Below, one piece after another: positions 55,520-57,932 of a stretch of 64,000 bases of DNA. The notes beneath the pieces were generated by a model that worked only from the letters and a program-made list of their open reading frames with translations, searched no databases and was not told the origin of the DNA. This DNA is from Escherichia coli (GTDB lineage: Bacteria; Pseudomonadota; Gammaproteobacteria; Enterobacterales; Enterobacteriaceae). How positions within the stretch are numbered: position 1 is the stretch's first letter; each line of letters opens with the position of its first letter. A program made the position numbers and the translations under genes. The stretch is from assembly GCF_030384885.1 (NCBI RefSeq), contig NZ_CP128613.1; one strand, given 5' to 3'.

Positions 55520-55560
55520 CCTGAAAATGCCCGGTCCTGGCGATCGGGCATTTCCATTTT
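55520..55560. terminator. Hairpin between convergent pitB and yghT
   Basis: atgcccggtcc...gatcgggcat inverted repeat followed by a T-rich tract. Confidence 0.45.
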
Positions 55561-55563
55561 TGA

Positions 55564-56256
55564 CTAGTGATAACCACACGCGGTCATAAAATCCGTAATC
55601 GCTTTTTCTGCATCAACCAGCACCTTTTCCAGTGGCTGATTGGCGTCGATATCAACCAGTTGTGCACCACCAAAGGTTAACTGTGGCGTTATGGCAATCT
55701 TTCTCGCCAGCGATTCCCGTTTATGGTCGGGTTTACGCGCGCAGGCAACTTCAAGGTCAACATTGAGTTTGATAACCAGATCAGGCTTATGGCTCGCCAT
55801 CCAGTGAAATGCTTTACGTTCCTGGCTTGCCAGCCATGAGACAAACCGGCCGCCTTCAACGTTAGGTGGGAACACCGTACCATCGTAAGCGCCAGGAATT
55901 TGGTCCTGAGGATAACGATCGGTTAAGACAATCAGCCCGCGACGACGACAGGCGAGCATATGACGAAAGCGTAACAGTCGGCGGGCGACGAAAGCGGTGA
56001 TCACCAGGGCCGGAACCGGACCCGGCAATTTTTTTGCCGTTTTCACTTCATTTTTTTCAATAGTCTTGTGCAGAGACTTTCCCATCAACGGTAATTTTGT
56101 CACTGCACGACCGACATTTCCGGCCTGTTTTCCTAAATGAACTCTTTCGGCAGCACCATATTTTTCGACAACGGTAATAAGATGTTCACACACCGTTGAC
56201 TTGCCTGAACCATCGCTACCAATAACGGCAATTAATGGAGGTGTTATTGACTGCAT
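55564..56256 (-). CDS. yghT: P-loop ATP-binding protein YghT
   Basis: 230 aa; Walker [10 protein letters not shown]; paralogous to YghS and YghR. Confidence 0.9.
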
Positions 56257-56334
56257 GAATATATCCTTAAATTTAAATATCCATCAAAAATATTTATTTG
56301 GTTAATATGTTTTTATGAAAGCGTAATTCAGGTC

Positions 56335-56362
56335 AATGTCACAATTAACCATTGTCACAATA
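56335..56362. promoter_or_regulatory. Direct repeat of TGTCACAAT in the yghT/yghS divergent promoter region
   Basis: aatgtcacaattaaccattgtcacaataagg: two copies of a 9-bp motif about 16 bp apart. Coordinates by eye. Confidence 0.25.
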
Positions 56363-56429
56363 AGGTTGAACGGATATTCTGAGCACGGACCACGTAATAT
56401 TCAATACATTATTTTCTGCCGGGTTTTTC

Positions 56430-57143
56430 GTGAATCAACGTAATATGTCAATAATTAATTCCACGCCAGTGCGTGTTATTGCCATTGTAGGATGTGATGG
56501 TTCAGGTAAATCGACCCTCACGGCAAGCCTAGTAAATGAACTGGCAGCAACAATGCCAACAGAACACATTTATCTCGGGCAATCGTCCGGGCGAATTGGC
56601 GAATGGATTTCACAGCTCCCTGTTATTGGCGCACCTTTTGGGCGTTATCTGCGAAGTAAAGCGGCACATGTGCACGAAAAGCCCTCCACACCGCCTGGCA
56701 ATATTACTGCGCTGGTTATTTATCTGCTTTCCTGCTGGCGGGCGTATAAGTTTCGCAAAATGTTGTGTAAAAGCCAGCAAGGCTATCTGCTCATCACCGA
56801 CCGCTACCCGCAGGTTGAAGTGCCGGGTTTTCGCTTTGATGGCCCGCAACTGGCAAAAAACACGGGCGGTAACGGCTGGATAAAAATGTTAAGACAGCGC
56901 GAGCTCAAACTTTACCAATGGATGGCGTCTTATTTGCCCGTATTGTTGATTCGTCTTGGCATTGATGAACAAACCGCGTTTGCGCGTAAACCTGACCACC
57001 AACTGGCGGCGTTACAGGAAAAAATCGCTGTTACGCCGCAACTGACATTCAATGGCGCAAAGATCCTTGAACTGGATGGTCGGCAACCAGCCGATGAAAT
57101 TCTGCAAGCGTCACTACGCGCAATTCACGCCGCGCTTTCCTGA
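56430..57143 (+). CDS. yghS: P-loop ATP-binding protein YghS
   Basis: 237 aa; Walker A GCDGSGKST; DRYPQ and ARKPDH motifs shared with YghR and YghT. Confidence 0.9.
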   Translation: MNQRNMSIINSTPVRVIAIVGCDGSGKSTLTASLVNELAATMPTEHIYLGQSSGRIGEWISQLPVIGAPFGRYLRSKAAHVHEKPSTPPGNITALVIYLLSCWRAYKFRKMLCKSQQGYLLITDRYPQVEVPGFRFDGPQLAKNTGGNGWIKMLRQRELKLYQWMASYLPVLLIRLGIDEQTAFARKPDHQLAALQEKIAVTPQLTFNGAKILELDGRQPADEILQASLRAIHAALS

Positions 57144-57173
57144 TCACCAAATGGATAGGGGATGATTTAACGA

Positions 57174-57932
57174 ATGGATGCACTACAAACACAAACTGTT
57201 AATAGTACAACCGCGCCGCAGCCCAACTACATTCCGGGGCTGATTGCGGTGGTCGGGTGTGATGGCACCGGTAAATCCACACTGACCACTGACCTGGTGA
57301 AATCGCTGCAACAACACTGGCAAACCGAGCGCCGCTATCTGGGGCTGCTCTCCGGCGAAGACGGCGACAAAATCAAACGGTTGCCGCTCGTTGGCGTCTG
57401 GCTGGAACGGCGACTGGCGGCCAAATCCTCGAAAACCCAAAGCATGAAAACCAAATCTCCGGCGCTATGGGCGGCGGTGATTATGTACTGCTTCTCGCTG
57501 CGAAGAATGGTGAATCTACGCAAGGTTCAGCGACTGGCGCAAAGTGGCGTTCTGGTGGTCAGCGATCGCTTCCCGCAGGCTGAAATTTCGGGCTTTTATT
57601 ATGACGGACCGGGGATTGGCGTCGAGCGTGCGACCGGGAAAATCAGCATGTTTCTGGCACAGCGCGAACGGCGTTTATACCAAAAAATGGCGCAATACCG
57701 TCCTGAATTAATTATTCGTTTGGGGATTGATATTGATACTGCCATCTCCCGCAAGCCTGACCATGACTATGCCGAGCTGCAGGACAAAATCGGTGTCATG
57801 TCGACGATTGGCTATAACGGCACAAAAATTCTTGAGATTGATTCCAGAGCGCCCTACAGCGAAGTGCTGGAACAGGCACAGAAGGCGGTTTCTCTGGTTG
57901 CAATCGTTTCTGACCGCCGAAGTTTAACTTAA
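57174..57932 (+). CDS. yghR: P-loop ATP-binding protein YghR
   Basis: 252 aa; Walker A GCDGTGKST. Confidence 0.9.
   Translation: MDALQTQTVNSTTAPQPNYIPGLIAVVGCDGTGKSTLTTDLVKSLQQHWQTERRYLGLLSGEDGDKIKRLPLVGVWLERRLAAKSSKTQSMKTKSPALWAAVIMYCFSLRRMVNLRKVQRLAQSGVLVVSDRFPQAEISGFYYDGPGIGVERATGKISMFLAQRERRLYQKMAQYRPELIIRLGIDIDTAISRKPDHDYAELQDKIGVMSTIGYNGTKILEIDSRAPYSEVLEQAQKAVSLVAIVSDRRSLT

Follow-up and report, generated by a model that had tools for sequence, protein, structure and literature searches.

What do YghT, YghS and YghR, three P-loop proteins of Escherichia coli encoded side by side, act upon? We addressed this question in a 64,000-nucleotide (nt) stretch of an E. coli chromosome (contig NZ_CP128613.1; hereafter the window), using the annotation of a RefSeq record with 100% identity to it, NZ_CP027579.1 (the E. 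coli 2013C-4282 chromosome). The three genes are yghT (55564–56256, minus strand, 230 amino acids (aa), delimited by its open reading frame (ORF) and RefSeq), yghS (56430–57143, plus strand, 237 aa, matching RefSeq) and yghR (57174–57932, plus strand, 252 aa, with an unnamed RefSeq homologue). The explanation that best accounts for the data overall, to which we give about an even chance, is that they are three substrate-specialised kinases, which together make up a conserved module for head-group chemistry within a proteobacterial locus of sphingolipid synthesis and export. Three "uncharacterized ATP-binding proteins" of the best-studied bacterium would thereby become testable enzymes. The triad genes and the neighbouring ceramide genes were already known; the substrate is what we infer here.

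YghT, YghS and YghR are paralogues with a thymidylate-kinase fold

A preliminary description of this DNA had proposed that the three proteins arose by triplication. Pairwise BLASTP among YghT, YghS and YghR gave 37%, 34% and 43% identity over ∼217 residues (E 4e-55, 2e-47 and 8e-63), well beyond chance, and their end-to-end three-way alignment contains 57 invariant columns. The motifs named in that description were found in all three proteins: a Walker A motif G[CS]DG[ST]GKST (with GCDGSGKST and GCDGTGKST among the variants), a DR[YF]PQ motif (TDRYPQ in two, SDRFPQ in the third) and an RKPDH motif (ARKPDH in two, SRKPDH in the third). The last of these had been placed at the C-terminus, but it lies at ∼75% of the protein length.

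Pfam Thymidylate_kin was the best match for 52 of 52 diverse family members, and hhalign aligned a family profile, built from 230 members, with E. coli Tmk (sequence checked against PDB 4TMK) at 94.7% probability. This alignment superposes the P-loop (Tmk G10–T17), DRY with DRH, RKPDH with the LID, and the C-terminal IDxxQP. The triad thus carries the generic kinase motifs (P-loop GxxGxGK[ST], DR[YH] and a basic LID) within a nucleoside monophosphate-kinase-like fold (three-layer alpha/beta/alpha around a parallel sheet, with P-loop and LID), and kinases are its top structural neighbours. Neither an ABC signature nor an AAA+ architecture was detected with Pfam, and structural comparison returned no transport ATPase as a neighbour. 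Membership of the ABC/AAA proteins was rejected, the fold being that of small-molecule kinases. We also rejected PPK2 membership, with neither a PF03976 match nor PPK2 enzymes as nearest structures, and homology to the Caulobacter ceramide kinase CpgB, which is diacylglycerol-kinase-like with a GGDG motif, whereas the triad proteins are P-loop enzymes with no DAGK_cat match in Pfam. The remaining Pfam and NCBIfam matches of the triad were of Walker A length, to many nucleoside triphosphatase models.

RefSeq/PGAP names yghS and yghT "dTMP kinase", a label that has spread to thousands of genomes, and thymidylate kinase is indeed the nearest family by sequence and fold. If the label were correct, the three would be genuine (deoxy)nucleotide kinases. 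However, the triad scored 25.7, 24.7 and 30.6 bits against TIGR00041, for which the dTMP kinase cut-off is 83.25 bits, and 20.9, 18.4 and 25.4 bits against PF02223, for which it is 27 bits. In the hhalign alignment, the dTMP-binding loop that follows strand 2 of Tmk (TREPGG) is replaced by YLGxxSG in the family (YLG[KQL]xxG across the paralogues), with acceptor-loop residues specific to each paralogue. The family also carries a ∼25-residue insertion relative to Tmk (residues 62–90) with a conserved LPxxG. In addition, the triad differs from Tmk in consisting of three co-inherited paralogues conserved inside a lipid locus, and the essential tmk gene of E. coli is located elsewhere. A role as nucleotide kinases is thus extremely improbable. 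The triad fails the tests that define dTMP kinases, and the RefSeq label is an over-annotation; the present analysis corrects a widespread mis-annotation.

Three clades keep their catalytic residues and differ in the predicted acceptor loop

A neighbour-joining tree of 230 sequences resolved three clean clades, which collected 75 of 75 YghT, 80 of 81 YghS and 73 of 74 YghR proteins. Median identity was 53–56% within clades and 35–42% between clades. Because three clean clades span the proteobacterial classes, the triplication is older than the spread of the module across those classes.

Walker A, DRYPQ, DG, E158, RKPDH and K198 are ∼100% conserved within each of the three clades. Positions 48–75, which align with the Tmk acceptor loop, include residues that are invariant inside a clade and differ between clades (e.g., H/Y/Y at position 48, K/Q/L at 51, N/R/E at 55 and R/E/D at 58). 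Since the catalytic motifs are intact and the acceptor-loop residues are clade-specific, we read YghT, YghS and YghR as three active kinases that would have different acceptors. Thymidylate kinases are dimers, and one could instead picture the triad as a single hetero-oligomeric kinase, or as one active and two regulatory subunits, responsible for one phosphorylation in the sphingolipid pathway. The retention of all catalytic motifs in every clade, each with invariant residues of its own in the predicted acceptor loop, is however typical of three active sites that take different substrates and not of pseudo-enzymes, and we regard such an assembly as unlikely.

In E. coli the kinase genes are part of a sphingolipid locus

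The yghS, yghR and yghQ genes run in one direction, separated by 30 and 45 bp, and yghT is divergent. All three kinase genes therefore lie upstream of yghQ and, contrary to the preliminary description, do not flank it. The genes that follow yghR downstream on its strand are almost contiguous: yghQ (57978–59327; a MOP-family, Wzx-like flippase by Pfam Polysacc_synt, 1.1e-10, and the NCBIfam MOP flippase model), a gene for an all-helical 274-aa protein annotated as hypothetical (59327–60151), a gene for a paralogous YtfJ-family periplasmic protein (60163–60723; Pfam 1.7e-59, TIGR01626), lptF2 (60753–61823; an LptF paralogue of the sphingolipid-locus type, TIGR04407 1.3e-96) and lptG2 (61819–62898; an LptG paralogue by RefSeq and Pfam LptF_LptG, 2.1e-69). 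Convergent to lptG2 are spt (62933–64000, minus strand; serine palmitoyltransferase by RefSeq and Pfam, cut by the window end) and the genes encoding an acyl carrier protein (acpR; ACP), an NAD-dependent epimerase/dehydratase-family protein (cerR-like) and a fatty acyl-AMP ligase (aasR), followed by yghO. The genes from spt onward were taken from the 100%-identical RefSeq record, and the locus was seen at window positions 57978–64000 and at L002 1–13372. The RefSeq record marks lptF2 of E. coli 2013C-4282 as "frameshifted", yet the ORF in the window is intact (356 aa); its product shares 97% identity with a further Escherichia copy across the full length, and 64% with a Serratia copy.

In E. 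coli B, spt, acpR, cerR/epi, aasR and the N-acyltransferase gene (yghO) are the published equivalents of the ceramide genes of Caulobacter, and enzymatic activity has been demonstrated for Spt, AcpR and AasR of E. coli B (PMC9386255). LptF2/G2 are implicated in Caulobacter sphingolipid transport in a preprint that also draws a sphingolipid operon of E. coli UTI89 (10.64898/2026.04.12.717747). The putative export system of the preliminary description is part of this locus for making and exporting sphingolipids, whose identity had gone unrecognised there. The published E. coli parts of the locus are only yghO, spt, acpR and aasR (E. coli B) and the drawn UTI89 operon, and a literature search found nothing that links yghR, yghS or yghT, "thymidylate kinase" or yghQ to sphingolipids.

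In a set of 5,426 complete E. coli genomes, the kinase triad was present in 4,743 and spt in 4,127, and ∼616 carried the kinases without spt. The locus is carried by about three quarters of the complete genomes of this species; by published accounts, BL21 and UTI89 are among the strains that have it. In K-12-like strains (E. coli TP6-1, L088 8580–11945), IS5 truncates the C-terminus of yghQ and replaces the segment from the gene for the 274-aa protein through aasR, so that only yghT, yghS, yghR and yghO remain of the locus.

Linkage to sphingolipid genes is conserved across Proteobacteria

Scanning GTDB with a single genome for each species yielded 321 relatives, from which the best 80 loci, each from a distinct species, were retained. 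These span Gamma-, Beta- and Alphaproteobacteria, Myxococcales and delta-type metagenome-assembled genomes. Gene presence was scored by tblastn with the proteins of the E. coli locus, and spt was counted within 10 kb. YghS was present in 80 of 80 loci, YghR in 77, YghT in 68 and all three kinases together in 66; yghS and yghR were adjacent on the same strand in 75 loci. YghS orthologues with 60–75% identity occur throughout Enterobacterales and beyond. Linked ceramide genes were Spt and ACP (acpR; 54 of 80 loci each), CerR-like (51/80), AasR (47/80) and YghO (29/80), and a YghQ-type flippase (62/80), the 274-aa protein (55/80), the YtfJ-family protein (37/80) and LptF2/G2 (36/80) also recurred. 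The linkage to sphingolipid genes is kept across at least eight gene orders; for instance, the triad lies beside an acyl-AMP ligase, an epimerase-like protein, ACP and Spt in both Serratia marcescens and Carnimonas, and their gene orders differ.

Unsupervised clustering of all ORFs in the 80 loci recovered the same families and revealed extra neighbours. A DgkA paralogue (40–46% identical to E. coli DgkA, usually adjoining yghO) was found in 21–23 loci, an LpxO-like hydroxylase in 20, PAP2 phosphatases in 18 plus 8, and a PEMT/ICMT-type membrane methyltransferase in 13, and DUF2147 proteins also recurred. The DgkA, LpxO-like, PAP2 and PEMT/ICMT neighbours are lipid A-style modifiers of lipid phosphates; PAP2 enzymes are lipid phosphate and pyrophosphate phosphatases. 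Examples of this set of DgkA paralogue, LpxO-like Asp/Arg hydroxylase, PAP2 and PEMT/ICMT proteins are at L003 2276–2635, L005 11596–12727, L052 7565–9807 and L053 1515–2195. In Sphingobium wenxiniae (L080 14548–16589), a GINT1_N protein and a glycosyltransferase of the GT4 type directly follow yghS-R-T-Q and the gene for the 274-aa protein; GINT1_N is the N-terminal domain of the plant glucosamine inositolphosphorylceramide (GIPC) transferase.

The frequent company of a flippase bears on the suggestion, made in the preliminary description, that the proteins are kinase-like or nucleotide-dependent factors of export. The functional tie to YghQ is borne out by the 62 loci and by a natural fusion, P0216, in which the kinase domain is joined to a MOP flippase and a nucleotidyltransferase-like domain. 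Together with the position of distant homologues beside Wzx genes and the lack of an lptB paralogue in the locus, this linkage would also suit ATPase motors or regulators that serve YghQ or LptF2/G2. Such a role is nonetheless hard to reconcile with a small-molecule kinase fold that is not of the ABC/AAA type and whose conserved DR and LID residues, like its acceptor loop, speak for transfer of phosphate to a substrate. MOP flippases, moreover, are not ATP-driven, and Carnimonas loci have the kinases with no YghQ within 10 kb. Caulobacter LptF2/G2, for their part, co-purify with the housekeeping LptB (10.64898/2026.04.12.717747). The kinase-like alternative thus holds, by profile and structural comparison, and an export ATPase role is quite unlikely given the fold.

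These data suggest that (i) YghT, YghS and YghR are, very probably, kinases other than Tmk that belong to the sphingolipid locus; and (ii) with chances that we judge evenly balanced, they phosphorylate the head group of a lipid, genomic context pointing to the acceptor.

A predicted phosphorylation module for the ceramide head group

Absent from the E. coli-type locus are a nucleotidyltransferase, a CDP-alcohol transferase, a glycosyltransferase and an lptB paralogue. In E. coli, Serratia and Xanthomonadales-type loci, the three kinase genes and the gene for the 274-aa protein are all that is left once the genes for ceramide synthesis and transport are set aside. Because nothing else is encoded besides ceramide synthesis and transport, phosphorylation would be the head-group chemistry that the locus can provide.

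Invariant His, Arg and Lys residues are numerous in the family of the 274-aa protein. Pfam CHAD (PF05235) was the recurrent top match among its members, one of which exceeded the cut-off (26.0 vs. 25.6 bits, E 1.1e-5), and the others gave E-values of 7e-4 to 0.03. CHAD domains are polyphosphate-binding modules (PMC6537752). Compared with them, the protein encoded at 59327–60151 has marginal sequence similarity and no CYTH fusion, and its binding of polyphosphate is only putative; we consider its assignment as CHAD-like to be moderately supported. A relationship of the 274-aa protein to the nucleotidyltransferase-like N-terminal domain of distant kinases was rejected, with no match by BLASTP or hhalign.

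In the proposed pathway, each paralogue would have its own acceptor, and the three would jointly phosphorylate a ceramide-derived head group at the cytoplasmic face. The triad might extend ceramide-1-phosphate to a pyro- or oligophosphate, a possibility raised because a phosphomonoester is what receives the phosphate in thymidylate-kinase chemistry and because the usual partner is CHAD-like. Since dihydroceramide offers two hydroxyls to three kinases (and to a DgkA paralogue in many taxa), with PAP2 and PEMT/ICMT proteins nearby, stepwise phosphorylation would be the most economical scheme. In this oligophosphate version, a DgkA-type kinase would give the first phosphate, ceramide-1-phosphate would then be converted to the diphosphate, the triphosphate and beyond, and the CHAD-like protein, as an oligophosphate binder, would keep hold of the head group. 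Flipping of the anionic lipid would fall to YghQ, and its extraction for delivery to the outer membrane to LptF2/G2 with LptB; in some taxa the lipid may be trimmed or methylated by the PAP2 and PEMT/ICMT enzymes. That a ceramide pyro- or oligophosphate built by three sequential kinases forms a new anionic outer-membrane sphingolipid class, within the capacity of most E. coli and many other Proteobacteria, is a bolder proposal, and one that we consider rather unlikely.

By analogy only, the triad resembles LpxK, the lipid A 4′-kinase, a P-loop kinase whose substrate, the precursor of a membrane lipid, is phosphorylated on the cytoplasmic side prior to being flipped and exported by Lpt. The likeness to the Caulobacter Cpg module (the ceramide kinase CpgB together with CpgA, CpgC and CpgD) lies in the neighbourhood: in both cases the head-group genes are found beside spt, acpR, cerR, aasR, cerS, a flippase and LptF2/G2, and the Cpg product, ceramide phosphoglycerate, is an anionic outer-membrane sphingolipid. 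In contrast, the two sets of enzymes share no homology, and what the E. coli-type locus encodes instead is a set of three kinases with the thymidylate-kinase fold plus a CHAD-like protein, with neither a nucleotidyltransferase nor a CDP-alcohol transferase. By this comparison, the triad module would be a functional alternative to the CpgA–D head-group enzymes. The prediction is a phosphorylated sphingolipid new to Enterobacterales and an alternative to the Cpg route to anionic outer-membrane sphingolipids. Caulobacter sphingolipids matter for the outer-membrane barrier, polymyxin sensitivity and host interaction (PMC11324152); if the prediction is true, such a lipid could affect the same properties in bacteria that carry the triad.

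Distant relatives of the family open another line of interpretation. Some are 470–530-aa proteins with an N-terminal nucleotidyltransferase-like (NTP_transf_5) domain (P0164 and P0169 are among the fusion examples), the kinase domain of P0251 is fused to GT4, and one relative, in a cluster of the sulfated-polysaccharide type that includes a sulfotransferase, has a Wzx flippase on one side and GT4/Wzy genes on the other (L086 5721–9482). A homologue with a transmembrane anchor was also observed (P0131). The family is therefore linked generally to flippase-dependent glycolipid or glycan assembly. With such relatives in view, the acceptor of the triad could be thought to be a soluble precursor of the head group (a sugar, polyol, acid or oligophosphate), to be attached at a later step to ceramide or to a lipid-linked glycan. 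Most solved kinases of this fold act on soluble substrates, and the kinase–nucleotidyltransferase fusions resemble the LicA/LicC pair, in which a kinase and a nucleotidyltransferase cooperate in activation. The E. coli-type locus, however, lacks the nucleotidyltransferase, CDP-alcohol transferase or glycosyltransferase that would attach the precursor, and the recurrent neighbours DgkA, PAP2 and PEMT/ICMT are lipid-phosphate enzymes, which renders a soluble acceptor improbable.

Several points weigh against the triad as three kinases of a ceramide head group. The acceptor is deduced from genomic context only, and no E. coli sphingolipid product is described in the literature that we found. The occurrence of distant members in Wzx/Wzy clusters and as fusions indicates that the family is not intrinsically ceramide-specific, so that the acceptor could be other than ceramide, and the triad could be the hetero-oligomeric enzyme considered above, carrying out a single reaction. 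Twenty-six of the 80 loci have no spt within 10 kb; several of them are short contigs or come from sphingomonads, in which sphingolipid genes are known to be scattered. As for the CHAD-like partner, Foldseek ranked CHAD second and without significance (E 0.16, TM 0.41), a search of PDB by sequence profile with the family found no match, and the E. coli 274-aa protein itself has no match in Pfam.

The intergenic repeat and the predicted yghS promoter

The divergent arrangement of yghT and yghS agrees with the preliminary description. The two genes are separated by a 173-bp AT-rich promoter region (56257–56429, 30% GC), in which a direct repeat of TGTCACAAT had been put forward as a possible regulator site. 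The 64 kb contain exactly two exemplars of this 9-nt word, one at 56337–56345 and one at 56353–56361. Both copies lie within a 12-nt repeat that is 11/12 identical at 16-bp spacing (copy 1, CAATGTCACAAT, 56334–56345; copy 2, CATTGTCACAAT, 56350–56361; both plus strand). Two or more matches to TGTCACAAT were obtained in 14 of 100 shuffles, so that the count alone is non-significant, and what stands out is that both copies fall in one spacer.

The paired copies are confined to Escherichia, and in E. whittamii copy 1 is already AATGCCACAAT. Pseudocitrobacter, Hafnia, Citrobacter amalonaticus and Shimwellia retain copy 2 (ATTGTCAC) as well as ATATTCTGAGCAC at 17 bp downstream of it, and the sequence between these two elements varies; an alignment of orthologous spacers showed ATTGTCAC to be conserved across five genera. 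A consensus scan predicted a sigma-70 promoter of the yghS operon, TTGTCA-17-TATTCT (56352–56380, plus strand), the only plus-strand sigma-70-like site in the spacer, whose −35 hexamer TTGTCA is included in copy 2. Because the conserved hexamer pair coincides with this site, the repeat is best explained, from sequence conservation, as the −35 box of the predicted yghS operon promoter accompanied by a lineage-specific near-duplicate, and not as a conserved or dedicated regulator site. The repeat itself thus exists; a conserved paired operator is ruled out by the restriction of the pair to Escherichia. The TGTCACAAT word did not match the consensus sequences that we take to be those of SlyA and GalR. 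In the proposed scheme, yghS, yghR, yghQ and the downstream genes would be transcribed from this conserved promoter, with the second TGTCACAAT copy as its −35 element.

The published record places yghS in two H-NS regulon datasets and reports a 3.1-fold increase on SlyA over-expression in K-12 (PMC5797941); a weak FlhDC peak from systematic evolution of ligands by exponential enrichment (SELEX) also maps to the yghS/yghT spacer. These reports are consistent with an H-NS-silenced, AT-rich promoter region in K-12.

On the minus strand, the sole consensus match for a yghT promoter, TTGATG-18-TATATT (56287–56258), stops 2 bp short of the ATG and does not convince; a conserved TATTTT ∼38 nt upstream of yghT is a weak promoter candidate. 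At the other end of yghT, a strong hairpin resembling an intrinsic terminator (12 pairs and a T run, 55525–55553) lies between pitB and the yghT 3′-end, and it could serve as a terminator for both convergent genes. A second exact 9-nt direct repeat, ACGTAATAT, is present at 56392–56400 in the yghS leader and at 56438–56446, just inside the yghS coding start, and the spacer alignment also revealed a TAATAT[TA]..CAAT element in the yghS leader that is conserved across genera.

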